In this document: in pieces, positions 8,963-62,085 of the stretch
Layout: the number at the start of each line of letters is the position of its first letter
Numbering within the stretch: position 1 is the first letter of the stretch
Source: a virus
Direction: 5' to 3' (one strand)
DNA: 64,000 nt
IMG/VR virus record: IMGVR_UViG_3300045988_139196
Made by a program: the position numbers and the translations under genes
Notes under the pieces: model-generated
Databases searched by the model: none
Seen by the model: the letters and a program-made list of their open reading frames with translations, nothing else
What the model was told of the DNA's origin: nothing

Positions 8963-9087
8963 AATTTACGCTTCGCAATGTGCGACACAGAAACATTGTA
9001 GATACAATTACGTTTCACAATGTACGGCAAAGTAACATTGTAGTATTCAATTTACGCTTCGCAATGTGCGACACAGAAACATTGTAG
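8963..9087 (+). ncRNA. type III antitoxin RNA: about 2.9 tandem repeats, 43-nt period
   Basis: Repeat 1 (8963-9001) and repeat 3 (9049-9087) are identical: AATTTACGCTTCGCAATGTGCGACACAGAAACATTGTAG. Repeat 2 (9006-9043) is a diverged copy. Confidence 0.7.
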
Positions 9088-36007: not shown

Positions 36008-37099
36008 TTGATTACGCCAAGGAAAAAAGTAAAAACCCCTGTAAGTACAAAAATATGTACAGAATGTGGCAAGGAAAAACCACTGTCACAATTTTATACT
36101 ACTAGAAATAGTAATATTTCTACTGATGGCAAAACGGTAAATATATGTAAGTCTTGTGTTAAAAAGGGTTCTTATAATTCTGATGGAAGCTTAAATATAG
36201 AAGCGTTCCAAAAGAAACTAATGTTAATGGATAAACCATACATACCAGAAGCTCTTGACTCTGCTATGAGTGAAGTAAGAAGATCATTAGAATTGGGCAA
36301 GGGTAGAACCGATATTATAGGCTGTTATTTTAAGAATGTGTCAACATTGCCACAGTATACGAAATTATCTTTTTTGGACTCTATGAATTTGTTTAATCAA
36401 GGCAAGTCTATTACTGAGGCAGTAACTACAACGGAAAAACGCAATATACTTCCTCGAAACGAAGAAGTATATGTAAATATGGTTGATGATTTTGTTGTTA
36501 CAAACGATATTACCGACTTATTTGGCGAGGGGTACACAAAATCACAGTACCGAAAAATGAAGAAAAAGTTTGATAAATTAAAAGAAAACTACTCAATTCA
36601 AACAAACTTACACGAGGAAGCTTTAGCAACCTATGTTCGTTTTAAGGTGAAAGAGGAAGAAGCCACAGCAGCAGGAGATGTTGGAAGTGCTGACAAATGG
36701 AATAGAGCTGCCCAAGATGCTGCTGATAAAGCAAAGTTGACTCCAAAACAATTAACGCAGGCTGATTTGCAAGGTGGAGTAACTTGCATTTCGGAAATAT
36801 CAAAAGCTTGTGAACAAGCGGTTGATATTGTTGAAATATTACCTAAGTTTAAGTACCAACCTAACGATGCTCCTGATTTTATAATATGGTGCTATATTAA
36901 CTATGCTAGAAAATTAAAAGGATTACCTAAGTGTGAGTATAAGGAAGTGTACCAATTTTATGACGACATGAAGAATGAGTACATTTCTCAGTATGGAGAT
37001 CCCTATGGTATTTTTACTGATGATACATCGGAAAAAAATAGGAGTTCTGTTGAAACGTTTATAAAACTGCCAAAAGATTATGAGAATGGTGACAAGTAA
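36008..37099 (+). CDS. Zn-ribbon protein, candidate small terminase subunit (by position)
   Basis: CTECGK..CKSC near the N-terminus. Lies immediately upstream of the large terminase and overlaps it. TTG start after GGAGGTGG. Confidence 0.35.
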   Translation: MITPRKKVKTPVSTKICTECGKEKPLSQFYTTRNSNISTDGKTVNICKSCVKKGSYNSDGSLNIEAFQKKLMLMDKPYIPEALDSAMSEVRRSLELGKGRTDIIGCYFKNVSTLPQYTKLSFLDSMNLFNQGKSITEAVTTTEKRNILPRNEEVYVNMVDDFVVTNDITDLFGEGYTKSQYRKMKKKFDKLKENYSIQTNLHEEALATYVRFKVKEEEATAAGDVGSADKWNRAAQDAADKAKLTPKQLTQADLQGGVTCISEISKACEQAVDIVEILPKFKYQPNDAPDFIIWCYINYARKLKGLPKCEYKEVYQFYDDMKNEYISQYGDPYGIFTDDTSEKNRSSVETFIKLPKDYENGDK

Positions 37100-40077
37100 T
37101 GAACTGGCAAAGAATAAAAGATTTTGAAAAAAATAGTGATAGTGTATTTGGCAAAAATCTACATAATTATTACACTTTTATAAGTTGGGCTAAGTGGTAT
37201 CCTGATTTATTACTCGACTTAATGAAACCTGAAACAGGTGGGTTAAATCTGCATTTAGATCAACGCATATTTTTGCGTTGTGACGTTAGATTTATGAGTA
37301 TGTATGGAACGTTTAGCCGTGGATATGGTAAATGCGTAAGTGGAGACACTATGTTATTTACCGATGAGGGTATTAAAGAGATTGGTGAATATTTTAATTA
37401 TCAAAATAACGATGTAGAAACCTATTATCCTACACACGCAAGGGTTGTAAATAGATATGGTAACTTAGAATGTTCAACTTTAGGTCTTTATAATGGTAGA
37501 AAAAATACTATAAAACTGACAGATAGTAAAGGTTATTCTATAACAGCCACCCCTAATCATAGAGTACTTGTTATGAAATCAAATGGAAGTGTAGATTTTG
37601 TAAAAACAGAAGATATAAAGATTGGCGATTATTTGGTTATTAATCGCAAAAATAATATCTGGGGTAATAATAATAAAGTTGAATATAAAAATGAAATTGG
37701 TGCATATGTAGAAAGCTTATCTCAACAATCACGTTCACATTTGAATATCAGAGCAATGCCAGATGGAATTACATCTCAATTAGCATTGATTTATGGATAT
37801 TTGATTGGAGACGGTTGTATGACTTCAAAAAATACAATTATCTTTACTAATATAGGTGATGAGATATTAGACAAGTTTAAAAATATTACGCAGAAATATT
37901 TTAACGTTGATGTCAAAAAAAGAAGTGACAATAATTACGACTATGAAATTAATGACACTTATTTAAGAAAATATCTCGAAATTATAGGATTTGATTATAG
38001 TAGATCATATGATAAAAAAGTACCTAAATCTATAATGGTAGCTAGTAAAGATGTTGTGTCAGCATTTTTACAAGGCTTATTTGACACAGATGGTACAGTA
38101 GACAATAAAATTATATCTTTAACAACAGTGTCGGAAAAGTTGGCAAATCAAGTTCATTTTTTATTACTGAATTTTGGTATTGTTTCTAAACTAAGTATTA
38201 AGAAAACAAAAAGTAAATTTGGTAAAGCATATCAAATTTGCATATCGGGGAACGATGTTGGTATTTTTAAATCTGAAATTGGTTTTGGTTTAAAGAAAAA
38301 GGCTGATAAACTTGATAAGTTGTGCAATAAAAAACATAACACAAATACAGACATAATACCATATCAGAACGAATTAGTTAAATCTGTACTTAATGAATTG
38401 AATTTACATTGGAGCGTTTCAAGGGAGTTCAATCATATTACAAGTGGAGAATGTGATTTAACGTATTCTAAATTAGATAGGTTAATTGCTCTATTGAACG
38501 AAAAGGGAGTTGCAAATAACACTTTAAACGAGTTGTATGCAACTCATTATTTTTATAGTCCTGTTGTTAATATTGAACATACTGTTTCAGATACATATGA
38601 TTTTCATTTACCTCAAACACATTCATTTGTGAGTAATGGAATTATAAGTCATAACACATTTGACGAGGTACTTGCTATGGTCGTAGTAGCAATGCTGTTC
38701 CCAAATATTGAATTGGCTCTTTCTGCGCAGACTAAAGAAAATGCGGCAGATTTATTGAAATCAAAGTGGAATGAAATTGTAAAATTATATCCACTTTTAA
38801 AGGACGAAATAAGAGAAGCTAGGTTTTCAAAGGGAAATGCTTATATTGAATTTAAAAATGATGCGACCATAGATGCTATTGCAAATGCTCAAAGCACAAA
38901 GGGTCAAAGACGTAGAAGGTTAAAAATAGAGGAATCCGCATTGCTAAATAATGCACTGTTTCAAGATGCTCTTGAGCCTGTAGTTGAAGTTCCAAGACTT
39001 ACGGTTGGCAGACTTGCGATAGTAGACCCAATGGAACTTAATCAGCAAATTCATTTTTTTACAACGGCAGGATTTAGGGGTTCAGACGAATATCAGCGTA
39101 GTATTTCAATGTTAGATGATATGGAAAATCTAAAGGGAAAAATAGTTTTGGGAAGCAACTGGCAACTTCCGTGTTGGTATGGTAGGGGAAGTAATAAAAG
39201 CAAAATACTTTCAAAGAAGAAAAATTCTTCTGTTGTAGCCTTCGCCCAGAACTATGAACAAGAATGGGTCGGCTGTGCTGACGGTGCGTTGGTTAATATT
39301 AATAAACTAATGAATTGCCGTACTCTAACGGAAGCGGTTTTACAAAATCCAGATCCAGAACAAGAATATTATATGGGTGTTGACGTGGCAAGAAGCCAAA
39401 AAACTTCTAATAACCAATCTTCTATTGCTGTAGTGCGTGTAATTAGAAGTAAGGATAAAGGGAGAATTATTTACATTGATGTGGTGAATATCATTAATAT
39501 TCCTAACGTACTTAATTTTAATGCCCAAGCTGCTATTATCAAAAAAGTTCAAAAACTTTATATGGCTAAAGTAGTTGTATTAGATGCTAATGGACTTGGT
39601 GTTGGATTGGCTGATGAACTTTTAAAAGACACGATTGACAATTCTACAGGTAAGGACTTGGGCTGTTGGGACACTATTAATGACGATAATGTTCCAGAAG
39701 TTCCTAACTCACCACAAATACTTTACAATATGAAAGCTCAGACTTGGCAAAATGAAATTGTAAGCACTTTTATAGATATGGTGGATAGTGGCAAACTTAG
39801 ATTGCTGGAAAAAAGACAAGATAATGATTTTACCGATAATGAATGGGATAGTTTTGACGAGAAAGTTAGACCTTTTATTGAGACAGATGCTTTTATTGAA
39901 GAAGCTGCGAATTTAAAGATGAAACATCTTAATAACGGCAACATTACTATTGAACAAGTTGTAAAAAAAGTAAATAAGGATAGAGTTTCGGCATTGATCT
40001 ATGTGTTGTGGTACGTTAATAAATATGCTCAAGACATAAATAACGATGAATACGATTATTGTTGTTTATTCAATTAA
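37099..40077 (+). CDS. terL: terminase large subunit, interrupted by an intein in the Walker A loop
   Basis: The exteins join as FSRGYGK|TFDEVLAMV, giving a P-loop GYGKT. Walker B-like LKIEES follows, then a nuclease-domain-sized C-terminus. Size without the intein is 551 aa. Confidence 0.75.
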   Translation: MNWQRIKDFEKNSDSVFGKNLHNYYTFISWAKWYPDLLLDLMKPETGGLNLHLDQRIFLRCDVRFMSMYGTFSRGYGKCVSGDTMLFTDEGIKEIGEYFNYQNNDVETYYPTHARVVNRYGNLECSTLGLYNGRKNTIKLTDSKGYSITATPNHRVLVMKSNGSVDFVKTEDIKIGDYLVINRKNNIWGNNNKVEYKNEIGAYVESLSQQSRSHLNIRAMPDGITSQLALIYGYLIGDGCMTSKNTIIFTNIGDEILDKFKNITQKYFNVDVKKRSDNNYDYEINDTYLRKYLEIIGFDYSRSYDKKVPKSIMVASKDVVSAFLQGLFDTDGTVDNKIISLTTVSEKLANQVHFLLLNFGIVSKLSIKKTKSKFGKAYQICISGNDVGIFKSEIGFGLKKKADKLDKLCNKKHNTNTDIIPYQNELVKSVLNELNLHWSVSREFNHITSGECDLTYSKLDRLIALLNEKGVANNTLNELYATHYFYSPVVNIEHTVSDTYDFHLPQTHSFVSNGIISHNTFDEVLAMVVVAMLFPNIELALSAQTKENAADLLKSKWNEIVKLYPLLKDEIREARFSKGNAYIEFKNDATIDAIANAQSTKGQRRRRLKIEESALLNNALFQDALEPVVEVPRLTVGRLAIVDPMELNQQIHFFTTAGFRGSDEYQRSISMLDDMENLKGKIVLGSNWQLPCWYGRGSNKSKILSKKKNSSVVAFAQNYEQEWVGCADGALVNINKLMNCRTLTEAVLQNPDPEQEYYMGVDVARSQKTSNNQSSIAVVRVIRSKDKGRIIYIDVVNIINIPNVLNFNAQAAIIKKVQKLYMAKVVVLDANGLGVGLADELLKDTIDNSTGKDLGCWDTINDDNVPEVPNSPQILYNMKAQTWQNEIVSTFIDMVDSGKLRLLEKRQDNDFTDNEWDSFDEKVRPFIETDAFIEEAANLKMKHLNNGNITIEQVVKKVNKDRVSALIYVLWYVNKYAQDINNDEYDYCCLFN
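37333..38655 (+). mobile_element. 441-aa intein with a LAGLIDADG homing endonuclease domain
   Basis: Starts CVSGDTMLFT (Cys1), block B is TPNHRVLV, LAGLIDADG motifs are LIYGYLIGDGCM and FLQGLFDTDGTV, and it ends FVSNGIISHN followed by the +1 Thr. Confidence 0.8.
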
Positions 40078-50740: not shown

Positions 50741-53700
50741 ATGGCAGATGATTTAAAAATACGAGTTCCTGTGGAACTTGACACAAGCAAAGTTAAAGAC
50801 GATATACCTAAATTAAATAATGTACTGGCAAATGACAATAAGGCTCATGCTAAAATCATTGGTGAGTTGGACTTGAATAAAACACAAAAGAAAATTCAAT
50901 CTCAACTTGCTACAATCAGCAAAAATCTAAAAATAGATATTGGTGGTTTAAATGTAACTTCTATTCAGAGTAGTATAAAGGCTGCTGAAAAACAGGTAAC
51001 TAGCTCTGTTAAAAATATAAAGCATGAGATACAGAATATTGACACAACTCTTGCAGAAACTTTTAAGGCAGGTTTTAATAAAGACGGACAGATAGATATT
51101 GTTAAAACTATTGAAAATGCAAGAAAAGTTTTGAGTCAGTTTGGCAATCCGACATTTTCATGGACTAAAGATAGTTCGGGTGAAGTCACTCAAATTACAG
51201 CAGAAATTACAAGTTTGACAGGTCAAGTCGAAAAACTGAAATATGCTCTGAACGAAACAAATGGGTCATTTGACTATCTATCGGGTAGTAGTTCTGAAAA
51301 GGGTATATTAAAGCTGATTGCGGATATTGATAAGGCTAAGTCGGATTATACTGCTAAACTTTCGGCATTTAAGTCAGCGAATAAAGGTATTGAATCGGGT
51401 ATAGGAAATGAAATTAATGCCGTTAATGCTGCTATTGACAATCTTGGCAAGGGTGGTTCTATTGCAGAGGTTGATAAACTATTCAATTCATTAAAAACTA
51501 CTGCAAGCAATATCAGGCAAAATTTAAAATCTCTTACAAGTTCTTTTAATGAAACTACAAATGCCGAAAACACTTTGGCTAAAATGCCTGCAACAATACA
51601 GGAAATATCAAATAGTTTTTCAAAACTTAAACAACAACCGTCAGAGGTTTCCGAATTAATTAGTAACTTAAATTCCCAATTAAATAAGGTCAATGAAACC
51701 GAAAGTCAATTTGGGCGAAACGAAAAATGGTCTGAAGAATATCGTGAGTTAGTTGTTTCGGTTAAAAAAGCAGAAACAGAAATAAAGAGCTTACAGTTAC
51801 TTGAAAGATCTGATAATTCTGAGGCACAGCAGCAAGCTCATTATTATAATAAGATGTTTGGTGAAATCAAACAGATTAATAAGCTTAAAAAGCAACAGGT
51901 CAATGCTGGCGAGCAAGAAAATGTTGAGCTAAAAAGACAGATTAAAAATCTTGAGAGTAGAGTTTCTTATGACGAGAAGCAGCTTAAAAAGAAGAAACTG
52001 ATTACAGAAGAACTTGAAAGACAAAAGAATGAATTAATAAACATTGGTAGGGAAGAACTTAGATTAGCCAATTCTCGTTCTGCTGATAAATCGTCAGCTA
52101 CATCTACTAAAACAGAAAATAATGTAGCTAGACTTACGCAAAATCTCACCACCTTAGAAACAAAATGGAAAGAGTCGCCTATTTTTAATGGAGAGTTTCA
52201 AGAAAAGTTTAATGAGTTAAAAACAAGTTTGTCTAATGTAGGTGGCGATCCTAAAGCATTAGACGAATATCGTATTAAACTCAATGAACTAACAAATGAG
52301 TTAAAGAGGGCAGATGTAGCTTATAAAGCTAGTTTTTCTAGCAATAAATCACAACAGAATATAGAAGCTACAAGGCAGAACATTAAAAAGTTAATATACA
52401 CAATTCAGACATGGCAACAGGCTAATACTAAAGCCATGGGCAAGAATACTTTTAATGGCGGTACATATCAGGTTGAAACTGATAATATGATAGCTTCACT
52501 CAAAAAGTTGCTTAATGCCAGTGATTTAACTGCGAGCGATTTGAAAGCCAATGTTGATAAAATCAATCGTAGTTTTAGGACAATGAGTTCTGAGGCACAG
52601 GCAGCAGGTGTGAACGGTTTAAGCTTTTTCGATAAGATTAAAGAGGACGCTTTAAAGTTCACAAGCTGGATGAGTTTGACTACTGTGATTTCAGGTATAT
52701 CCAGAGAAGCTGTTAAGTTCTATAATAATGTTGTAGATATTGATACAGCTATGACAGACTTGCGTAAGGTTACTGATAACACAAATCAGCAATATACCGA
52801 GTTCTTTGATAATATAGGTCAAAAGGCTAAAGATTTAAAGATTGATTTATCTGATCTTATTTCTCAAACCGCAGAATGGGGTAAACGTGGTTATAGCTTA
52901 GATGAAGCCGAAACACTTGCCACAAACTCAGGTATTTATTCAGTTGTTGGTGAAGTAGATAATGCAACAGCAGTACAAGACCTAACAACAGTTATGAAAA
53001 GCTATAACATGACAGTTGATGAGTCTATCAATATTGTCGATAAGTTTAACGCAATATCAAACAAGTATGCTGTTTCAGCGAGTGACATCGGTGATATGTT
53101 GTCAAGGTCAGTATCTTCACTGAGCGTAGCAGGAAATACACTAGATCAGGCAATAGCAATGGGTACAGCCATTACAGAAATAACTGGAGACGCAGCCGAA
53201 GCGGGAAATAGTTTGAAAGTCCTGTCAATGCGACTTCGTGGAGCAAAAACAGAACTTGAAGATGCAGGCGAGTCAACAGAGGGCATGGCGGTATCGACCT
53301 CAAAACTGAGGGAAGATATTAAAGCTCTTACTAACGTAAATGGCACAGGCGGTTTTGATATAATGAAGGACTCTCAGAATTTTAAGAGTACCTATGAAAT
53401 TATGAAAGGTATCGCCAATGTTTGGAACGATCTTACTGATACATCAAAAGCCGCTGTCATAGAGAAAATCGCAGGCAAGCAAAGAGGCAATACAATTACT
53501 GCATTGCTTACAAATATGAGTCAAGCGGATAAAATTGTTAATGACTCAATAGGCTCTGCTGGGTCTGCTATGTCAGAGTATGAAAAATACCTTGATTCCA
53601 TTCAAGGAAGAGTGCAAGGTTTTCAGACAAGTATTGAAAATTTGTCAGCTACTCTGATTAATGGTGATTTAGTTAAATTCGGTATCACCAGTGGAACACA

Positions 53701-53851
53701 AATTATTGATGTTCTTGATAATCTAATTAGTAAATTCGGTGTTTTAAAAACACTTATTCCTACCGTTATGGCAGGATTATCATTCAAAAACGTAGGTAAA
53801 CAATTATTAAAGATGCCAACTTATGCACAGCCACAAACTATATGTGCATAG
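50741..53851 (+). CDS. tail tape measure protein, 5' portion (the ORF terminates by reading into a group I intron core)
   Basis: Long coiled-coil N-terminus. TP901-family tape-measure core (DIDTAMTDLRKVTDNT..ISNKYAVSASDIGDMLSRS..AGNSLKVLSMRLRG). The last 9 codons plus the TAG overlap the P1 hairpin. Confidence 0.75.
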   Translation: MADDLKIRVPVELDTSKVKDDIPKLNNVLANDNKAHAKIIGELDLNKTQKKIQSQLATISKNLKIDIGGLNVTSIQSSIKAAEKQVTSSVKNIKHEIQNIDTTLAETFKAGFNKDGQIDIVKTIENARKVLSQFGNPTFSWTKDSSGEVTQITAEITSLTGQVEKLKYALNETNGSFDYLSGSSSEKGILKLIADIDKAKSDYTAKLSAFKSANKGIESGIGNEINAVNAAIDNLGKGGSIAEVDKLFNSLKTTASNIRQNLKSLTSSFNETTNAENTLAKMPATIQEISNSFSKLKQQPSEVSELISNLNSQLNKVNETESQFGRNEKWSEEYRELVVSVKKAETEIKSLQLLERSDNSEAQQQAHYYNKMFGEIKQINKLKKQQVNAGEQENVELKRQIKNLESRVSYDEKQLKKKKLITEELERQKNELINIGREELRLANSRSADKSSATSTKTENNVARLTQNLTTLETKWKESPIFNGEFQEKFNELKTSLSNVGGDPKALDEYRIKLNELTNELKRADVAYKASFSSNKSQQNIEATRQNIKKLIYTIQTWQQANTKAMGKNTFNGGTYQVETDNMIASLKKLLNASDLTASDLKANVDKINRSFRTMSSEAQAAGVNGLSFFDKIKEDALKFTSWMSLTTVISGISREAVKFYNNVVDIDTAMTDLRKVTDNTNQQYTEFFDNIGQKAKDLKIDLSDLISQTAEWGKRGYSLDEAETLATNSGIYSVVGEVDNATAVQDLTTVMKSYNMTVDESINIVDKFNAISNKYAVSASDIGDMLSRSVSSLSVAGNTLDQAIAMGTAITEITGDAAEAGNSLKVLSMRLRGAKTELEDAGESTEGMAVSTSKLREDIKALTNVNGTGGFDIMKDSQNFKSTYEIMKGIANVWNDLTDTSKAAVIEKIAGKQRGNTITALLTNMSQADKIVNDSIGSAGSAMSEYEKYLDSIQGRVQGFQTSIENLSATLINGDLVKFGITSGTQIIDVLDNLISKFGVLKTLIPTVMAGLSFKNVGKQLLKMPTYAQPQTICA

Positions 53852-54153
53852 GTCACACACGTTTTAAAATAAGGTTGCCAAATTGCTGAGAACGGCTAAA
53901 GCTTTGCGACTACTTATAGCAATGGCACTATAAGAGTGAGGAAACTCGGAAACAATAGCAAAGATAACATATGCTGAGATAAAAGTCTATTATACTATTA
54001 TAATAGGTGCTAAGTGTTATTAAAAATGTCAGGTCAGCAGCCAACCCCTATCGGGAGATACGGACTAGGTTCAGAGAGTAGACGGTAACTATCTTGTGGT
54101 GAGATAAAGGTGTACTCCAACTATAGGTAACACCTATAGCGTTTCTAAAAATG
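53822..54153 (+). ncRNA. group I intron catalytic core (P1-P9)
   Basis: P element AAATTGCTGAGAACGG (53880-53895). P4 is TGCTGA 53884-53889 / TCAGCA 54034-54039. P3 is GGTTGCC 53873-53879 / GGTAACT 54084-54090. R element GGTTCAGAGAGTAGACGG (54068-54085). P7 is GAGTA 54076-54080 / TACTC 54113-54117. P8 is ATCT/AGAT. P9 hairpin is 54121-54139. P1 is 53819-53829 / 53843-53853, with a single U-G pair at 53821/53851. Confidence 0.7.
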
Positions 54154-54338
54154 AATTATCCCTCATTTATTTAGTTTTGCCCTTTAACAGTAAGGGTGGG
54201 ATAAAACTGTTATTAATCATTTTGCATAGTGTTTTATTTTACACTATTCATTTGTGTATGTCAACACTAAATTTGTTCGTTAATAAAAATTTTACATTTA
54301 TATTTACATAATGTTTGTTAATGCAACCATTATATGGC

Positions 54339-54367
54339 TTGACATTAGTTCCCAATATGGGTATACT
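54339..54367 (+). promoter_or_regulatory. promoter of the MazEF-like operon, followed by operator-like repeats
   Basis: TTGACA (54339-54344), 17-nt spacer, TATACT (54362-54367). Then the palindrome TATGCGTTAAACGCATA and ACGCATAATTTATTA twice (54378-54435). Confidence 0.55.
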
Positions 54368-54534
54368 GATAATAGAAATATGCGTTAAACGCATAATTTA
54401 TTATTTACACGCATAATTTATTAGTTATACGCATATTTTAGGTGCTTGCCCCTATAATATAATAGAGGTGATACCGCATGGAAGAAACTAACAACAAAAA
54501 GAATGTACGTAAAAAGTAGCAGGAGTTGATAGAT

Positions 54535-54726
54535 ATGGCAGTTATGAGTAAACCTGTAAATCTTGCCTTCGTTGTTAGAGAAGATAAAGCGGACGAATTT
54601 ATTAATTCCAAGTCCTCCGCAGCAGTTATTTCAAAAATAAAAAAACAGGCAAGAGAGATGATGAAACATTCGACTTTTAACGGACAGCCATGGGGAGAAG
54701 ATATTAGGAAATCACTTGAAGGCTAA
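54535..54726 (+). CDS. hypothetical small protein
   Basis: Start at the ATG after GCAGGAG. Confidence 0.4.
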   Translation: MAVMSKPVNLAFVVREDKADEFINSKSSAAVISKIKKQAREMMKHSTFNGQPWGEDIRKSLEG

Positions 54727-54802
54727 ACTATAAAAGTTTCATTTTTAATCAACAACCATACACAAAGGTATAAAATTATTTCAAAATTTAGAGGTGAGGT
54801 TT

Positions 54803-54985
54803 ATGGCTAAAACAATAAATGTACAGAATACTAAGATGTCAGTTGAGGAATTTAATCAATTTATTACAGCCAATTTAGATTTTATACTGAGTAATGTACC
54901 GCACAATCCGACAATAAACAAAGATGATGAGTGGAATGATAAAATCTACGATAATTATGCAAAAATCGATGACGATAGGAAGTGA
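54803..54985 (+). CDS. candidate antitoxin of the downstream MazF-like toxin
   Basis: 60 aa with an acidic C-terminus (KDDEWNDKIYDNYAKIDDDRK). Ends 5 nt before the toxin start. RBS AGAGGTGAGG. Confidence 0.4.
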   Translation: MAKTINVQNTKMSVEEFNQFITANLDFILSNVPHNPTINKDDEWNDKIYDNYAKIDDDRK

Positions 54986-54990
54986 CATAA

Positions 54991-55380
54991 ATGGCGAAGA
55001 AACAATGGGAGTTGTGGTACGCTAATTTTCCCTTTGAAGATAAAAATATCTCAAAGGATAGACCTGTTATTATATTGAGTGTGCAACCTTTGTGTGTACT
55101 GTCAATTAAAGTGACAAGTCATGAAGTGAGAGAAGCCGATAAATATGATGTACCTATTACTCATTGGCAAGAGGCAGGATTAAAGCATGAGTCTGTAGCA
55201 CGAATTTCCAAAACCGTATCGTTGGATAACAGTAAGTTCCGAAGAAAAATTGGTGAACTACATAAAGATGATATTGATATTATTCTTGAAAATTATGTTC
55301 AGTTTTTGCTTGAGTCAGATCAGGTTAAAATGGAAAACGGCAAGGGTGACAACGAGTTACTGAACGCAGCAAATGAATAG
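54991..55380 (+). CDS. MazF/PemK-like toxin
   Basis: WELWYANFPFED..SKDRPVIILS......IKVTSH..........ESVARISKTVSLD fits the PemK-like SH3 barrel pattern. Confidence 0.55.
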   Translation: MAKKQWELWYANFPFEDKNISKDRPVIILSVQPLCVLSIKVTSHEVREADKYDVPITHWQEAGLKHESVARISKTVSLDNSKFRRKIGELHKDDIDIILENYVQFLLESDQVKMENGKGDNELLNAANE

Positions 55381-55389
55381 ACATAGAAT

Positions 55390-55421
55390 AAGACCCTAGA
55401 TTTTCTCTAGGGTCTTTTGTT
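55390..55421 (+). terminator. rho-independent terminator
   Basis: Stem AAGACCCTAG/CTAGGGTCTT followed by TTTGTT. Confidence 0.7.
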
Positions 55422-55470
55422 ATTGACATTTTCACTAATTTTTAGCTTGAAACTTTGTACATATTGTATA

Positions 55471-55499
55471 TTGATTTTTTGTCGTTAATGTCATATAAT
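55471..55499 (+). promoter_or_regulatory. promoter of type III TA locus C
   Basis: TTGATT (55471-55476), 17-nt spacer, TATAAT (55494-55499). Confidence 0.55.
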
Positions 55500-55531
55500 A
55501 TAGTAAAGAAATGATTCAAGAGATTGAACAC

Positions 55532-55632
55532 TTCAAATGTTTGTCGCTGCTAGATATGCGACTAATAAATAGTCTAGTTCAAATGTTTGTCGCTGCTAGA
55601 TATGCGACTAATAAATAGTCTAGTTCAAATAT
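55532..55632 (+). ncRNA. type III antitoxin RNA: about 2.2 tandem repeats, 46-nt period
   Basis: TTCAAATGTTTGTCGCTGCTAGATATGCGACTAATAAATAGTCTAG occurs at 55532 and 55578, with a partial third copy from 55624. Confidence 0.7.
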
Positions 55633-55662
55633 AGTCTCGCCTAGAGCGGGACTATTTGTTTT
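55633..55662 (+). terminator. rho-independent terminator
   Basis: Stem AGTCTCGC/GCGGGACT followed by ATTTGTTTT. Confidence 0.6.
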
Positions 55663-55677
55663 GAGGGGCATAAATTA

Positions 55678-56157
55678 ATGGAAGTTGGACATTTTTATTT
55701 TTTGGACAATCAATATTATCAAGATTTCAATGACGATAAGCTTATGAGCAATCATGAAACTGTTGATGGTGAAGTACATGGTCGCCCTTGCTATTGTTGT
55801 ATAAACACATCTGATAACGGTATTTATTGGGCTATTCCAATATCTTCGCAAGTTGAGAAATATAGAAAAATATATGATAAGAAGATTGACAAGAATGGAA
55901 AATGCGATACCATTGATTTTGGAAAAGTGCTTGGTGCAGAGAGAGCGTTTTTAATTCAAAATATGTGTCCTGTTACCGATAAATATATAAAGAATGAGTA
56001 TCAACATTTAGGTGTACCAGTAGCCATTGATTATATGACATATAAAAGAATAGTGTCTAAGGCTACAAAGGTGTCTGCTTTGGTACATAATAATAATTCG
56101 CATTTGATATTTCCAGATGTGTTGAAAATTGAAGAAGTGCTAAAGTCAAAAAAATAA
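55678..56157 (+). CDS. type III TA toxin, ToxN/AbiQ/CptN-like endoribonuclease (third paralogue)
   Basis: FYFLDNQYYQDFNDDKL..GRPCYCCI..GIYWAIPISSQVEKYRKIY..RAFLIQNMCPVTDKYIK. Closest by eye to the 8343 protein. Confidence 0.7.
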   Translation: MEVGHFYFLDNQYYQDFNDDKLMSNHETVDGEVHGRPCYCCINTSDNGIYWAIPISSQVEKYRKIYDKKIDKNGKCDTIDFGKVLGAERAFLIQNMCPVTDKYIKNEYQHLGVPVAIDYMTYKRIVSKATKVSALVHNNNSHLIFPDVLKIEEVLKSKK

Positions 56158-56176
56158 ATAGAATACAATGCAAATA

Positions 56177-56204
56177 AAGCTCCGATATTCTCGGAGCTTT
56201 TGTT
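56177..56204 (+). terminator. rho-independent terminator
   Basis: Stem AAGCTCCGA/TCGGAGCTT followed by TTGTT. Confidence 0.65.
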
Positions 56205-56276
56205 ATACATGAACACACATCGTTTACTTTCGTCCATTTGTACACTTGTGTACACTCATACACTCATATTCATTAT

Positions 56277-56702
56277 CTATTCTCTCAAATTAACATTTAC
56301 GTTAGTCCAATCCTTGCCGTCACGTTCCATAGTGACAGTATAGTACAATCTGCCCTTAACACCAAAACTATTTTCAGCGTCCACATAAGATGATACGGTG
56401 TAGCTATCATTATGATGTGTAATAAAGCTTTTATCATACATTGGATAATCTGCCGTGGCAGGGGCTTTTAACTGTTTGTTTACATAGAATTTAGCTGCTG
56501 TGTAAGCTTCTTGGCTGTAGTCTTTTTCGTAGTGTGAAATGTCGGATATTTTATCGACCAATCCTATAATAAAGAAAAATAATAATATAATGGCAAATAT
56601 AATTTTGCCAATAGAATAATGAACTTGTTCGGTAGCCTCGTTGTTGTTAGACATGGTATTTTCATTAGTTACATTGTCTGTTTTTCCTTGATTATTCGTC
56701 AT
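56277..56702 (-). CDS. single-pass membrane protein with an extracytoplasmic domain (exclusion-type moron?)
   Basis: TM segment IIFAIILLFFFIIGLV. The C-terminal AKFYVNKQLKAPATADYP...SYVDAENSFGVKGRLYYTV pattern is common in small Firmicutes envelope proteins. Confidence 0.55.
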   Translation of the reverse strand: MTNNQGKTDNVTNENTMSNNNEATEQVHYSIGKIIFAIILLFFFIIGLVDKISDISHYEKDYSQEAYTAAKFYVNKQLKAPATADYPMYDKSFITHHNDSYTVSSYVDAENSFGVKGRLYYTVTMERDGKDWTNVNVNLRE

Positions 56703-56889
56703 AACTATTCTCCTTTAAATTTTATATCAAAACTATAAATGAATAACTGTTAAGGTCTTTAAAACAGTTGAAAATGAGAGTAGTGGCAAGACTAATATTA
56801 GCGTATTAGGCAAGACTATAACGCAACTTTCAGATTTAAAGAACTTATTCAACAATAAATCAAATATAACCTTAATCCCTGCAAGTGAA

Positions 56890-59800
56890 GTGGCGAACGT
56901 TCGTCAGTTCAACAATCTTTTAGCACAGGGAAAATCTGTAGCTGAAGCTGAGTCAATAGCCTTGAAAGGCTGTTCTGAAACAACTCTCAATGTTGCCAGA
57001 AGTGCTAATGGTGCAGCAGTATCAGAAGAAATACTGTCTGCTTCTTTAAAGGGTGTTGCAACTTCCTCTAAGCTTGCTGCCGCTGGCATGAAAGTATTAT
57101 CAACCGTTGGTAATATGGCGGTAGGTGTTATCGCAAGTATAATCCTTGATGGTAGTATAACACTTTTTGATAATATTGTCAATGGTGCAGATAATGCAAA
57201 AGAAAGTTTAGCTCAGTTCACAAGTAGTTTCTCTGACTCTATTGACAAATTAGACGAAGAAAACAAGTCAGTAAATGAATTAGTAAATCGTTATGTAACT
57301 TTGGTTGCGACAACAGATGACTTGTCAACTGTTAAGGACGATTTGAATACTATTCAGGACAACTTAATTGATAAGTACGGTAATGAAGCTAAGAGCCTTG
57401 ACTTGCTTAATGACAAAATGTCTGAGAATATTAAGAAAATCAAAGAGTGGAAAAAAGAAAAGGCTGAGAGTGAACTTTATCAAGAGTCGGATATTACTGA
57501 TCCTGATGATAGTGATAGAAAGCTGAGTGTTAAAGAAGCCTATGATTTAGCACAAAAGAAATTAAAAGAGGGAAGCTCTTTTAACAAGGGTCTTTTTACT
57601 ACTGATTATGGTGGCAAAGGGCAAGCCTATGTATCAGACGGTCTATTCAGTGGCTATAATTCTAATGCTGATATCAACAAGGTCGGCTCTCGTGGTGATG
57701 GTGATTGGTACAGTTACAAGAATGACATTGAACCAATTCTCAAAAAGTATAATAACGTTGGTATAAGCACTAATGCTTATAGTAATTTACTTTTCGCAGG
57801 TACAATGCAAGAACGTATTGATACCATGCAAAAGGTTTATGATGAATTATCCGAGAAATGGGCAAACATTTCAAAAGACGATAATCGTAACAAGTGGTTG
57901 GCTGACTTGCAAAAAGAAATTGCCACTACAACAGAGGAATATGATAAACTTTCCAATGCCGTTGATAAATACAACGAAATTCAGAAAACACTTGAAAACT
58001 ATAACACAAGTGAAGAATTTAGTAAAGCATTTGATGAAGCTCAGAAAGCTACTGAAAGTTATAGTCATGCTGTAGAAACCAAAAACATTGATGATGTTGA
58101 TAGGCTTTATGATTTAACTCAGAAATACAAAGATAAGTTAATCAACTTGGCTAATGGTGACGAGGATTTAATTGACTATGTTAATACTTTCTTTGAAACT
58201 TTGCCTGCAAAATTAACAACAGGTACTTTTGATATTTCTGAGTGGACGGACGATATTGACGAAGTTCAGAATAAGGCAAAATCACTGAAAGATACCTTAA
58301 CGAGCCTGCAAGACGGAAGTATTTCGGATAGTGATTTAGTTGAACTGTTTAAATCATATCCTGACTTAGCTAAGTTCTCAGGCAACACGGAAAAGCTGAC
58401 AGAAGAAGTTAAGAAACTGATAAGACAAAACCCTAAAGAGCTGATAAATAGACTCAAAGAGTTATCAGACACATTGCCAAATGGCAACGATAAGGCTAAT
58501 GTGGAAGGTCTTATTTCAAGCCTTGAAAAGCTTGGAGAGGTAGCTTCTTCTATTTCCGAAGTTAAGCTGTCTGTAGACGATATTGAGAAAATTTATGAGG
58601 AAACGTTTGATGATCTTATAGATAAAGCCGAGGACGAGAAAGATGTTCTTGAAGAACAAAAGAATATTCTTACAGAACAAAAAACTCAACTTGACAATAT
58701 TATTTCTCAGTACGAAACCGTTGCAAACACAGTGGAGTCTTATATTGACGAGCAGAAATCAGCTATTGAGGACAGATACAATGCTGAAATTGATGCCATT
58801 AAATCCGTTAATGAAGAAAAACAAGATACTATTGACTTACAGGAAAAGTTAAATAATCTTGAAAATGCTAAAAAGAAAAAGGTAAATGTTTATTCTGAAG
58901 CTAGTGGTTGGCACTTAGAAACCAATACCGAGGAAGTAAACAAGGCACAGCAGGAATATGAACAGGCGAGTGCTGATAAACGTGTATCTGACCTTGAAAA
59001 ACAGCGTGACAAGGAAACTTCACTGTGGGATAAGTATAAACAACAGTGGCAAGACCTTATCAATAGCTCTACCAATACAGAAAATGAACAGCTTGCCAAA
59101 GATATTTTAGGCGTTAATTGGACGGACAAAATAGCACAGCAAGACACGAATATTCTTAATGACTTTGCGAGCAAATATCAATCTTATCGTTCTCAGCTAT
59201 CAGATCAGGTTGAAAAGGAAATTGAGAGCGTTGATAAAGAGATAACGGCTAAAAGCAAAGAAATTGAGGCATACAAGAAAGAAAAAGAAGCTTTATCAAA
59301 CTATGTTACAGATATTACGAATAAGAACAAAGACTACATAAAACAGTTGACAAACGTTTCTGAAAAAGAAATGCAGACTATGGAAGGTAGGACTAAGTTC
59401 TTAGAGGATTGTAAAAAACGTGCTAGGGAAGCTCTTGACTATTCTGATATTTCTGTTGAGGGTGCTAAATCGAATGGTTTGTATCTTGTTCAATATGACG
59501 GTGAAACTGTTGGAACAGGGCTTGATGAAGCACAAGCAGAACAGTTAAAATCTGAACTGTACGGCAAAATGGTTTCATCAGAACTCTTGGCTAACCCTAT
59601 GCTTGGTAAGAACAAGGGTGCATTAACAGCTATTCTTAACGCTTTAAAGAGTAAGTTTAACATTATTAAGCCATATCGCTCAGGTGGTATTGATGATTAT
59701 ACAGGGCTTGCTCAACTTCATGGAAAGCCAAATGCAGTTGAAACTATCTTCAATTCAGAGCAAGGCAGAAAGCTATACAACCTTGTGGCTAATACGGATA

Positions 59801-60027
59801 ACCTTGTCAATTATATTGGAGATAAGATTTATAACGGCATAACAGATTTGGTAAGGACAAAAATGTCCTCACCAAACAATATTCAAAATAGAAATGACAC
59901 AAACAATAAGACTATCGTATTCCAGATTGATACTGTCAATACAACAGACGGCACAACATTCTTAGAGCAGATGAACGCTTATCTGCAACAGGCTGATTTG
60001 GATAGAATAGTTGGTAAAAATTATTAA
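56890..60027 (+). CDS. tape-measure-like coiled-coil protein, likely the 3' portion of the split tape measure; 5' boundary unresolved
   Basis: No ATG or RBS. The frame is open from 56743. N-terminus has a hydrophobic Gly/Ala segment (AAGMKVLSTVGNMAVGVIASIILDG), followed by about 900 aa of coiled coil. Confidence 0.55.
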   Translation: MANVRQFNNLLAQGKSVAEAESIALKGCSETTLNVARSANGAAVSEEILSASLKGVATSSKLAAAGMKVLSTVGNMAVGVIASIILDGSITLFDNIVNGADNAKESLAQFTSSFSDSIDKLDEENKSVNELVNRYVTLVATTDDLSTVKDDLNTIQDNLIDKYGNEAKSLDLLNDKMSENIKKIKEWKKEKAESELYQESDITDPDDSDRKLSVKEAYDLAQKKLKEGSSFNKGLFTTDYGGKGQAYVSDGLFSGYNSNADINKVGSRGDGDWYSYKNDIEPILKKYNNVGISTNAYSNLLFAGTMQERIDTMQKVYDELSEKWANISKDDNRNKWLADLQKEIATTTEEYDKLSNAVDKYNEIQKTLENYNTSEEFSKAFDEAQKATESYSHAVETKNIDDVDRLYDLTQKYKDKLINLANGDEDLIDYVNTFFETLPAKLTTGTFDISEWTDDIDEVQNKAKSLKDTLTSLQDGSISDSDLVELFKSYPDLAKFSGNTEKLTEEVKKLIRQNPKELINRLKELSDTLPNGNDKANVEGLISSLEKLGEVASSISEVKLSVDDIEKIYEETFDDLIDKAEDEKDVLEEQKNILTEQKTQLDNIISQYETVANTVESYIDEQKSAIEDRYNAEIDAIKSVNEEKQDTIDLQEKLNNLENAKKKKVNVYSEASGWHLETNTEEVNKAQQEYEQASADKRVSDLEKQRDKETSLWDKYKQQWQDLINSSTNTENEQLAKDILGVNWTDKIAQQDTNILNDFASKYQSYRSQLSDQVEKEIESVDKEITAKSKEIEAYKKEKEALSNYVTDITNKNKDYIKQLTNVSEKEMQTMEGRTKFLEDCKKRAREALDYSDISVEGAKSNGLYLVQYDGETVGTGLDEAQAEQLKSELYGKMVSSELLANPMLGKNKGALTAILNALKSKFNIIKPYRSGGIDDYTGLAQLHGKPNAVETIFNSEQGRKLYNLVANTDNLVNYIGDKIYNGITDLVRTKMSSPNNIQNRNDTNNKTIVFQIDTVNTTDGTTFLEQMNAYLQQADLDRIVGKNY

Positions 60028-60080: not shown

Positions 60081-60106
60081 AGAAATATTTTAAATTCAAT
60101 AAAATA

Positions 60107-60135
60107 TTGACAAACGTGGACGAATGTGGTATAAT
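60107..60135 (+). promoter_or_regulatory. consensus promoter of tnpA
   Basis: TTGACA (60107-60112), 17-nt spacer, TATAAT (60130-60135). Confidence 0.6.
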
Positions 60136-60167
60136 GTACTTATAAGAAACAATAAAGGAGTTTTTAT

Positions 60168-60818
60168 ATGAGTAATTATAAACCACAAGAATTTGCTGAA
60201 ATGATAGGTGTATCTGTAAAAACCTTGCAACGTTGGGACAAAGAAGGCAAACTTAAAGCATATCGCACTCCAACAGATAGGCGTTATTATACTCACAAAC
60301 AATATGTCGATTATATGGGTGATGGTAATAGTAAACACGGCAAAACGGTCATATATACAAGAGTATCTACTTCTAATCAAAAAGATGATTTACAAAATCA
60401 AGTCGAATTTTTAAAACAATATGCTAATGCAAAAGGGATTATTGTTGATGAAATCTTTGAAGATATAGGTAGTGGGTTAAATTACAATCGCAAGAAATGG
60501 AATAAACTTATTGAAGATTGTATGCTTGGATTAATAAAGACTGTTATTGTTGCTCATAAAGACAGATTTGTACGTTTTGGATATGAATGGTTTGAACGTT
60601 TTCTTAAATCTGATGGTGTTGAGATTATTGTTGTTAATAATGAAAAGGCATCACCAGAGCAAGAATTAGTTAATGATTTAATATCCATTATACACGTTTT
60701 TAGCTGTCGTATATATGGTTTAAAAAAGTATAAAAAGCAAATCGAAGGAGATGAAGAAATTGCTAAAGAGTTACAAGACAGAAATAAACCCAACGTTCGA
60801 ACAGAAACAAACAATTAA
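60168..60818 (+). CDS. tnpA: IS607-family serine recombinase transposase (MerR-like HTH plus resolvase domain)
   Basis: N-terminal HTH EFAEMIGVSVKTLQRWDKEGKLKAYRTPTDRRYY, then VIYTRVSTSNQKDDLQNQ containing the catalytic Ser. Confidence 0.8.
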   Translation: MSNYKPQEFAEMIGVSVKTLQRWDKEGKLKAYRTPTDRRYYTHKQYVDYMGDGNSKHGKTVIYTRVSTSNQKDDLQNQVEFLKQYANAKGIIVDEIFEDIGSGLNYNRKKWNKLIEDCMLGLIKTVIVAHKDRFVRFGYEWFERFLKSDGVEIIVVNNEKASPEQELVNDLISIIHVFSCRIYGLKKYKKQIEGDEEIAKELQDRNKPNVRTETNN

Positions 60819-61935
60819 TCGCACTATTGGAGTATGCAGATACGTTTACAACTTTTATCTTGCTCACAATCAAGAAATATATAAAACTGAAAAACGTTTT
60901 GTATCTGGAATGGACTTTTCTAAATGGATTAACAATGAATTCATTCTCAACAATCCTGACTTTCATTGGATAAAAGAGGTTAGCAGTAAGTCTGTTAAAC
61001 AAAGCATTATGAACGCTGAGAGAGCTTTCAAGAACTTTTTTAAAGGAAAATCAAGATTTCCAAAGTTCAAGAAGAAAGCAAAATCAGATGTAAAAATGTA
61101 TTTTGTAAAAACAAATGCTAAAACAATTATTCAATGTGGAAGACATAGAATTAAGATTCCTACCCTTGGTTGGGTAAGATTAAAAGAAAAAGGATATATT
61201 CCTACAAACCCCAAAACACATATTATCAAAAGCGGAGCAGTGTCTTGCAAAGCAGGAAGATACTATGTGTCGGTTTTAGTCGAAGAGCAGGAACATCAAA
61301 AGCCTGTTTTAAATGACTTTGGAATAGGAATAGACTTAGGTCTTAAAGATTTTGCCGTTTGTTCAAGCGGAAAAGTTTACAAGAATGACAACAAGAGTTC
61401 TAAAATAAGGAAACTTGAAAAGAAACTTAGACGTGAGCAACGTAGCTTATCGAGGAAATACGAAAGCTATAAGAAACTTAATAAAAATATGAAAGGAGTA
61501 GCTACTCGACAAAATATCCAAAAGCAAAAGTTAAAAGTACAGAAAATTCATCAAAGACTTGACAATATAAGAACAGATTATATCAATAAGGTAATATCCG
61601 AATTGGTGAAAACCAAGCCAATGTGGATTACTATTGAGGATTTAAATATATCAGGTATGATGAAGAATAGACATCTCTCCAAATCAATCGCACAGCAAAA
61701 GTTCTTTGAATTTAGGACAAAGCTACTTGCTAAGTGTAACGAATATGGGATTGAGTTAAGAGTCGTTGATAGATTTTATCCTTCTAGCAAAACTTGTCAT
61801 AATTGTGGTTGTATCAAATCTGATTTGAAATTATCGGATAGAACATACCATTGTTGTGAATGTGGTTATACAGAGGATAGAGATTATAATGCAAGTCTTA
61901 ATTTGCGAGATTGTCAAACCTACAAGGTAGCATAA
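60751..61935 (+). CDS. tnpB: TnpB RNA-guided nuclease (OrfB_IS605 family), catalytic residues intact
   Basis: N-terminus SYKTEINPTFEQKQTINRTIGVCRYVYN. RuvC I is IGIDLGLKDFAV, RuvC II is ITIEDLNISGM, Zn finger is CHNCGC..CCECG, RuvC III is DRDYNASLNL. Confidence 0.8.
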   Translation: MKKLLKSYKTEINPTFEQKQTINRTIGVCRYVYNFYLAHNQEIYKTEKRFVSGMDFSKWINNEFILNNPDFHWIKEVSSKSVKQSIMNAERAFKNFFKGKSRFPKFKKKAKSDVKMYFVKTNAKTIIQCGRHRIKIPTLGWVRLKEKGYIPTNPKTHIIKSGAVSCKAGRYYVSVLVEEQEHQKPVLNDFGIGIDLGLKDFAVCSSGKVYKNDNKSSKIRKLEKKLRREQRSLSRKYESYKKLNKNMKGVATRQNIQKQKLKVQKIHQRLDNIRTDYINKVISELVKTKPMWITIEDLNISGMMKNRHLSKSIAQQKFFEFRTKLLAKCNEYGIELRVVDRFYPSSKTCHNCGCIKSDLKLSDRTYHCCECGYTEDRDYNASLNLRDCQTYKVA

Positions 61936-62085
61936 ACAAGCTAACGTAGGTATGTACCGTAGGCTATACGGGAATTTACGCCTGTGGACTATACAAGAAC
62001 TTGTGAGTAGTCTTATGACAAAAGCATATAGGTTGAAGCAGGAATTTTCTCGATATGGATATATTTGTCCATATTTTGAGTAGCA
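61880..62085 (+). ncRNA. predicted omega-RNA (reRNA) scaffold of TnpB; boundaries approximate
   Basis: Inferred from the known TnpB architecture (scaffold overlaps the tnpB 3' end and the IS right end). A hairpin ATATGGA/TCCATAT lies at 62054-62076. Confidence 0.3.

Follow-up and report, generated by a model that had tools for sequence, protein, structure and literature searches.

The window analysed here is a stretch of 64,000 nucleotides (nt) from the viral record IMGVR_UViG_3300045988_139196; coordinates refer to it throughout, and related sequences are labelled L001, L002 and so on. On its plus strand, two long open reading frames (ORFs) that resemble the two halves of a phage tape-measure protein (TMP) are separated by 2,933 nt (53822-56754). 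This segment opens with a group I ribozyme core, continues with toxin-antitoxin genes and an oppositely oriented membrane-protein gene, and closes with a short conserved tail, so that about 2.5 kb between core and tail form a peripheral insertion. The sequence comparisons described below indicate that 53822-56754 is probably one functional group I intron in the TMP gene. A first-pass annotation, made from the DNA letters, had already proposed a single TMP gene with a group I core at the 5′ end of the interruption, cargo behind it and a distant 3′ splice site, and this layout is now supported by Rfam matches, covariation, fused homologs and coding selection.

The tape-measure gene and its prophage

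The host phage is an SPbeta-like prophage of Hominimerdicola aceti, and the same prophage is present in the genome of H. aceti strain Sanger_31. Genes neighbouring the TMP gene in related contigs match the SPbeta-named structural Pfam families YonD, YonB, YomX, YomW and YomN, and the window encodes at 28159-30834 a protein of 891 amino acids (aa) with a match to Pfam RdRP (3.5e-15), the YonO-like single-chain RNA polymerase expected of SPbeta-type phages. The prophage appears to be very common in the human gut, because one variant of the 1,036-aa protein encoded by the upstream ORF is alone indexed in 475 blocks of the contig collection.

Exon 1 of the TMP gene occupies 50741-53821 on the plus strand (1,027 codons). 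The annotated ORF is slightly longer (50741-53851, 1,036 aa) and extends past exon 1 into the predicted intron as far as a TAG at 53849-53851. Exon 1 carries the TP901-type core of tape measures (Pfam PhageMin_Tail, PF10145, 2.2e-23, aa 695-912) and aligns collinearly with the first halves of fused TMPs. Exon 2 follows at 56755-60027 on the same strand (1,090 codons) and is defined by the point where protein similarity starts, by third-position bias, by fused homologs and by a match to positions 945-1505 of the 2625 in the TMP profile phrog_4211. The ORF called there, 56890-60027, is 1,045 aa long; its frame is open from 56743, and the first start codon in frame is a GTG at 56890.

TMPs of the TP901 type consist of the PhageMin_Tail core and a long coiled-coil C-terminal half, which in the fused homologs form one polypeptide. 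Among 1.84 billion representative proteins there are many uninterrupted TMPs of 1,886-2,525 aa, and homologs of 1,886-2,120 aa cover both halves in the same order. Homology to these long proteins starts at residue 24-30 of the extended second frame, corresponding to about residue 950-990 of the long TMP, and in seven fused homologs the collinear alignment runs straight through the predicted junction, a point that sits in a linker of variable length. Joined as predicted, the reading frames run without an internal stop for 2,117 aa in the window and 2,150 aa in the divergent relative L011. The first-pass annotation had seen the continuity of the two ORFs in a hydrophobic Gly/Ala segment directly after 56743; that segment lies about 100 residues further on, and the continuity with the TMP has been upheld on the ground of the fused homologs.

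It had also suggested aligning relatives that lack the segment. Here the fused TMPs served, being collinear across the junction, whereas no intron-less allele turned up among close relatives. A short protein query spanning the spliced junction found no fused close homolog, and the phage collection held no DNA or protein match to the segment or to the start of exon 2.

A group I ribozyme core

The catalytic core lies at 53874-54139 on the plus strand and comprises P3, P4, a P5 that carries a long extension, P6/P6a, P7, P8 and P9; P3 and P7 form a pseudoknot, and a bulged A in P7 adjoins the G-binding pair. Together with P1 it extends over 53819-54139, and the P9 hairpin that closes it (54121-54139) agrees with the earlier statement that the core is complete by about 54150. 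In a search of 381 nt, the Rfam group I model RF00028 aligned over its whole length (1-253) to 53816-54139 with 29.9 bits (E=6e-6). Two more divergent relatives, L011 and L114, have the same split and the same intron with different cargo; exon 2 of L011 is 40% identical to that of the window, and L114 stands further off. RF00028 matches the cores of L011 and L114 with 30.8 and 42 bits, respectively.

By eye, the conserved elements P, Q, R and S can all be found in the classical order. The P element UUGCUGA (53883-53889) pairs with Q, UCAGCAG (54034-54040), and P7 is formed by R (GGUUCAGAGAGUAGACGG) and S (GAGAUAAAGGUGUACUCC) with the usual bulged A. R and S depart from the consensus in that they read GAGUA and UACUC, not GACUA and UAGUC, and the departures compensate each other; the 17-mer containing R also occurs inside Rfam-accepted group I introns of unrelated viral contigs. 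The P5 extension holds a hairpin with a GAAA tetraloop (53938-53947), in whose stem a G-C pair covaries to C-G. Covariation was counted over the 26 distinct core sequences of alignment A1, using 72 pairs of a manually assigned P1-P9 structure. Paired cells made up 97.9% of the alignment, compared with 27-41% when the partners were slid, and double-sided changes affected 22 of the 72 pairs as against 3.6+-1.3 in shuffles, a count that none of 500 shuffles reached. Full-length Rfam matches in three lineages and this covariation identify the core, at the level of sequence, as a group I ribozyme.

The Rfam scores themselves are modest. All three are below the gathering cut-off of 50, no intron was reported at the gathering threshold in the 64-kb window, and none at E<=10 in a search of 4 kb. 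The score is depressed by the P5 extension of about 100 nt and the missing P2. Scores of this size would be expected if the resemblance to a group I intron were due to chance and the segment were a plain intergenic island of accessory genes (morons) between two unrelated genes. This explanation is hardly credible: the model matches over its full length in three lineages, the covariation exceeds every control, and in many homologs the supposedly unrelated ORFs have their counterparts side by side in a single protein, so that both the covariation and the collinearity with fused TMPs already contradict it.

The place usually taken by P2 is occupied by ACACGTTTTAAAATAAGGTTG (53856-53876), which has no local pairing partner; its sequence is the same in L011 as in the window, and L114 departs from it at a single base. 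A search pattern specific to this family of cores gave chance matches only in metagenome contigs and one true match in genome contigs, the H. aceti genome.

The predicted 5′ splice site

The P1 hairpin (53819-53853, plus strand) is a stem of 10-11 bp in which 53819-53829 pairs with 53843-53853, and the Rfam alignment contains the same P1. Its single wobble, U53821.G53851, is kept in 25 of the 26 distinct sequences; the adjoining pairs covary, and in L011 and L114 four pairs of the stem are changed on both sides. The 5′ splice site is accordingly predicted directly after U53821, where exon 1 would end in phase 0 with ...KQLLKMPT. Beyond this point the annotated ORF reads into the intron as YAQPQTICA and a stop; L011 and L114 have other tails of other lengths. 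In L111, column 27 of alignment A1, the wobble U is replaced by C, giving a C-G pair, which could be a splicing-impaired allele or a sequencing error.

The predicted 3′ splice site and the start of exon 2

Homology and reading frame together place the predicted 3′ splice site between G56754 and G56755, the first in a list of G-preceded candidates that the first-pass annotation had drawn up. With a slash marking the junction, the spliced RNA would read ...GAUGCCAACU/GUCUUUAAAACA... (in longer form AAGATGCCAACT/GTCTTTAAAACAG; as a 26-mer GATGCCAACTGTCTTTAAAACAGTTG) and the protein ...KQLLKMPT/VFKTVENE.... Homology among all close relatives returns at 56720/56721 after a variable stretch, and protein similarity begins exactly at VFKT in three lineages. 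The junction types AAG/GUC, UAG/GUC and AUG/GUC have in common a terminal G and the GUCUUUAAAACA that follows it, and a terminal G precedes the first conserved codon in every type, including AAGG/ in L114. In the type found in L001 the frame cannot be read from further upstream, because an in-frame TAG directly precedes the junction. L114 has its canonical 5′ site in codon phase 1, and its 3′ site is therefore placed one G further on; the second G (AAGG/UG) restores the frame.

Coding constraint sets in at the same point. Over the 45 codons from 56755 up to GTG 56890, comparison with one variant gave 4, 1 and 13 differences at the three codon positions (11 synonymous and 5 non-synonymous codons), and comparison with another gave 14, 11 and 31; insertions and deletions stay in frame, and the other two frames hold stops. 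There is no Shine-Dalgarno sequence where the conserved coding begins, and the window has no in-frame start codon upstream of GTG 56890, which bears out the earlier remark that the ORF, open from 56743, begins without ATG or ribosome-binding site. The starts chosen by gene callers for the second ORF differ even among near-identical relatives, giving proteins of 1,039-1,072 aa. The 45 codons upstream of GTG 56890 are thus under coding selection without a conserved start codon.

An ordinary intron of about 320 nt, spliced locally at G54139 or G54141 and followed by the cargo and the second ORF as separate downstream genes, would account for the fact that the Rfam model ends at G54139 and that all core elements lie upstream of 54140. 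It is very unlikely, as exon 2 would then amount to RF or FLKMNYPSFI before a stop, with no counterpart in L011 or L114, whose sequence after P9 is different; the start-less coding selection from 56755 and the collinearity with fused TMPs would also go unexplained.

What might guide the ribozyme to the distant 3′ site was sought in pairings of the exon. The 3′ exon starts with GUCUUU and has no complementarity to the guide sequence that lies 5′ of GGU. A substitute for P10, in which the invariant single-stranded P2 region GUUUUAAA (53861-53868) would pair with UUUAAAAC of the 3′ exon, was considered and rejected on two grounds: the sequence is a palindrome, and L114 does not preserve the pairing.

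A short inverted repeat of 14 bp flanks the cargo. Its left arm, CAUUUA-UU-UAGUUUUG, lies at the left edge of the cargo (54164-54179, plus strand) and is complementary to 56728-56741, where the conserved 3′ tail of the intron begins (56728-56754, plus strand); this tail consists of the right arm, CAAAACUA-UAAAUG, and 13 nt that end in the terminal G56754. The core of the repeat, GUUUUG(A) with (U)CAAAAC, amounts to 7 bp and is kept in the window, L011 and L114. The GUUUUG/CAAAAC helix is suggestive of a pairing that may close the cargo into a loop.

Cargo genes of the probable intron

The promoter with operator repeats, the MazEF-like pair, the type III toxin-antitoxin locus and the opposite membrane-protein gene of the first-pass annotation were all recovered where it had put them. 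All lie on the plus strand except the last. The cargo begins with a promoter (TTGACA-17-TATACT, 54339-54367) and an operator-like 20-nt repeat in 2.8 copies (54384-54440), which together span 54339-54440. Module A follows. Its first gene, a small ORF without a family match, encodes 82 aa in relatives and is shortened in the window (54535-54726) by a TAG at 54517-54519, in the region 54478-54537, where L003 has AAG; translation could restart at ATG 54535. Next is a candidate antitoxin gene of 60 aa (54803-54985), for which family searches returned no antitoxin family; it ends 5 nt before a gene for a PemK/MazF-type toxin (54991-55380; Pfam PF02452, 2.2e-12; MazF-like phrog_1936, 3.9e-20). A bidirectional terminator-like hairpin (55390-55416) closes the module.

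The second module, 55471-56157, is by its sequence a CptIN-family type III toxin-antitoxin locus. It contains a CptI-like antitoxin RNA locus (55471-55655) with a promoter-like site, a repeat of 46 nt in 2.2 copies that are 100% identical (55532-55630) and a terminator (55631-55655) directly upstream of the toxin gene. The toxin of 159 aa (55678-56157) belongs to the CptN family (PDB 4RMO, CptN, E=1.7e-22 over residues 5-155). The last gene, on the minus strand at 56277-56702, encodes a single-pass membrane protein of 141 aa with a small alpha+beta outer domain; the structure model, with a membrane helix and this domain, has a pLDDT of 72.8 and found no significant PDB match in a fold search.

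None of the cargo proteins of the window was recognised by PADLOC. Family searches gave no match to a transposase family in any of the five cargo ORFs, and no LAGLIDADG, GIY-YIG, HNH or similar endonuclease domain was present in the cargo ORFs of the window, L002, L011 or L114.

Variability of the cargo

The 29 complete introns range from 952 to 4,876 nt and show eight gene configurations. Module A, with its small ORF, 60-aa ORF and PemK gene, alternates with an unrelated module of 67+145+132 aa; the CptIN toxin gene is present in some introns and absent in others; and L011 carries a SLATT/DUF4231 membrane effector instead. The sole constant feature is a minus-strand gene adjoining the 3′ end of the intron. 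Membrane-protein homologs with 42-48% identity hold this place in the window, L001, L011 and L113, and in L114 and L123 it is taken by a different protein, with a zinc ribbon. The cargo is thus built of modules that differ from strain to strain, together with a conserved antisense gene for a membrane protein.

L122 and L123 were considered as further cases and set aside, as their TMPs are split but do not contain this intron. In L122 (1-900) the TMP homolog is split elsewhere, inside the PhageMin_Tail core, and a 211-aa ORF just upstream is zinc-finger and endonuclease-like, which points to a separate event in TMP genes, the insertion of an intron or of a homing endonuclease.

A nested IStron and other selfish elements

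In about a quarter of the related contigs the ribozyme core is itself interrupted. A 2,546-bp insertion (L001, 11149-13694) lies at the GG of UUGCUGG/GAACGG, inside P4/J4-5 of the host ribozyme, at the position of 53888/53890 in the window. It is carried by L001, L004, L006, the H. aceti reference genome and eight viral contigs; by label, the carriers are L001, L004, L006, L118, L039, L059, L066, L068, L071, L073, L077 and L103. The insertion contains a group I-like core of its own (RF00028, 35.4 bits, E=2.4e-7), an IS607 serine recombinase, TnpB and a RAGATH-18 RNA, and over 96% of its length it shares 70.6% identity with an element of Clostridium phage c-st. Tourasse et al. (PMC4227781) record in phage c-st a group B IStron of 2,559 bp, CbISt3, and state that elements of this group insert at GG targets and splice after a G. 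The c-st element that matches the insertion is presumably CbISt3. As a homolog of this IStron, the nested element could remove itself from RNA, and its precise removal would restore the host sequence as it stands in L002. The interruption of the core is thus better read, on this homology, as an intron within an intron than as a sign that the host intron is dispensable.

Other selfish elements lie elsewhere in the window. Just downstream of the TMP gene and outside the intron, a separate IS607 element (about 60086-62084), absent from L002 and L007, consists of a MerR+resolvase TnpA (60168-60818), TnpB (60751-61935) and a RAGATH-18 RNA (61981-62044), without an intron part. In the structural region, a 992-aa ORF (37099-40077) has an intein splicing domain and a LAGLIDADG homing endonuclease, which adds another type of selfish insertion to this phage. 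At 8964-9085 there is a Fusobacteriales-1 RNA motif (RF02920, 88.7 bits), here in a Clostridia prophage or host region and outside the taxon from which the motif is named.

Functional intron or relic

Besides the low Rfam scores, several observations weigh against a functional intron. No canonical P10 or P9.0 pairing that would select the 3′ splice site was found by eye, and re-inspection ended, as the first-pass annotation had, without a convincing P10. By duplex energy, the possible loop-closing helix does not stand out from shuffles or from all other 40-nt stretches of the intron. On its way the pre-mRNA would meet two plus-strand terminator-like hairpins (55390-55416 and 55631-55655) and a convergent gene. 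Searches for an intron-less allele with a DNA pattern gave chance matches only on viral contigs. The phase shift of L114 is compatible with splicing and comes from a single sequence.

The missing pairings, the non-significant long-range helix and the internal terminators with the convergent gene would all be understandable in a relic intron that no longer splices. The TMP would then be permanently split into two cooperating proteins of about 1,040 aa each, the second made from GTG 56890 or another weak start, and gene callers do find starts for the second ORF. The insertion of 2.5 kb inside P4/J4-5 in about a quarter of related contigs points the same way. Such a relic is nevertheless unlikely. 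Compensatory changes maintain the helices across lineages whose exons have diverged to 40% identity. The called starts vary among near-identical relatives, and conserved coding begins 45 codons before the GTG, right after a conserved G and without a Shine-Dalgarno sequence. The element inserted in the core is, moreover, itself a homolog of a self-splicing IStron. A functional intron thus remains the probable reading.

If the intron is functional, the late transcript of lytic growth would cross the whole segment. The ribozyme core at its 5′ end would fold and cut after U53821 at the U.G pair of P1, and the exons would be joined at G56754/G56755 to encode a TMP of 2,117 aa; the 2.5-kb insertion between core and 3′ tail could be looped out by the GUUUUG/CAAAAC helix. 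The transcript would have to pass the internal terminators. YonO is the polymerase that transcribes the SPbeta late genes as one operon (PMC5467207), and read-through is plausible because the window encodes a YonO-like polymerase. The cargo, which has promoters and terminators of its own, would presumably be expressed in lysogeny and serve addiction, defence or exclusion functions. As the segment would be removed from the mRNA, the swap, loss or gain of modules, even of an IStron, would be harmless to the essential gene, and such harmless exchange would explain why the cargo varies from strain to strain.

Comparison with known systems

The closest precedents by location are the group I introns TMP-IVS1/2/3 in the TMP genes of Bacillus cereus group prophages (Tourasse and Kolsto 2008, PMC2504315). 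Like the intron described here, they interrupt, in frame, the long TMP genes of temperate Firmicutes phages and have a stop soon after the 5′ splice site, and some lack a homing endonuclease. The B. cereus introns are compact, or hold only homing-endonuclease genes or their remnants, whereas the present one measures 2.9 kb, its counterparts in relatives 0.95-4.9 kb, and the genes in it, for toxin-antitoxin systems, membrane proteins and other products, have promoters of their own; one of these genes is antisense.

IStrons (CdISt1; group B, of the IS607 type, such as BcISt1 and CbISt3; PMC4227781, bioRxiv 10.1101/2023.11.20.567912) share the 5′ core, the kilobases of cargo and the far 3′ splice site. 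An IStron-like layout with non-transposase cargo had been predicted for the window, and the limits found here agree with it: the core runs to 54139, the 3′ splice site is placed at 56754, and no transposase lies between them. In IStrons an inverted-repeat stem bridges the cargo; the similar short inverted repeat around the present cargo has energies no better than shuffles. The cargo that marks an IStron is an IS200/IS605 or IS607 element with TnpA and/or TnpB. Unlike IStrons, the intron of the window is without transposase or TnpB and occupies a fixed site in one gene, and it appears to be inherited vertically; the group B IStron nested in some relatives is an element distinct from it.

The parallel with IStrons holds for the architecture, and an equally close one is found in phage introns that have an ORF in their 3′ domain. 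Michel et al. are said to have described, in 1992, the phage T4 nrdD (sunY) intron as having its ORF in a 3′ peripheral domain and its 3′ splice junction at a remote site. Introns of this type reportedly combine, as here, a complete upstream core, a long insertion and a short 3′-terminal segment with a terminal G. The T4 intron is said to contain a single sense-strand homing-endonuclease gene, in contrast to the multi-gene, partly antisense and strain-variable island described here, and the pairings described for the 3′ domain of sunY have no demonstrated counterpart in the window.

In content, the cargo resembles the moron and defence hotspots of prophages, where self-transcribed toxin-antitoxin and membrane-protein genes likewise keep to one place with conserved sequence on either side, and where near-identical phages exchange modules. 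Moron hotspots lie between genes, whereas this one sits within an essential structural gene, in its coding sequence, and is predicted to be removed at the RNA level. A literature search of incomplete coverage turned up no intron reported to hold morons of the toxin-antitoxin or membrane-protein kind.

Implications

Group I introns of bacteria and phages carry homing endonucleases or, in the case of IStrons, transposon genes, which serve the spread of the intron itself. The cargo here consists of variable genes of a lysogeny type that are plausibly of benefit to the prophage or its host. With rather less assurance than splicing itself, the group I intron can be taken for a lasting refuge in which accessory genes sit safely within an essential late gene, with the peripheral region as a recombination hotspot; there, phages would exchange toxin-antitoxin, membrane-effector and exclusion-type genes, and even an IStron, and the ribozyme would splice them out over 1-5 kb. 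As a bolder extension, the cargo could control tail production, either by antisense transcription or through the action of the two intron-encoded endoribonuclease toxins on the pre-mRNA. If true, this would tie the expression of the TMP to the state of the addiction modules.

Metagenomes of the human gut contain hundreds of contigs of this very common phage, and both material and public data exist. If splicing takes place as predicted, this would be a natural ribozyme that joins exons across up to about 4.9 kb of unrelated, independently transcribed DNA, and the way in which the late-gene polymerase passes internal terminators and a convergent gene would become a testable question. It would also mean that accessory islands can hide in genes annotated as two 'split' ORFs, and the idea of the defence and moron hotspot would be extended to the inside of a coding sequence.

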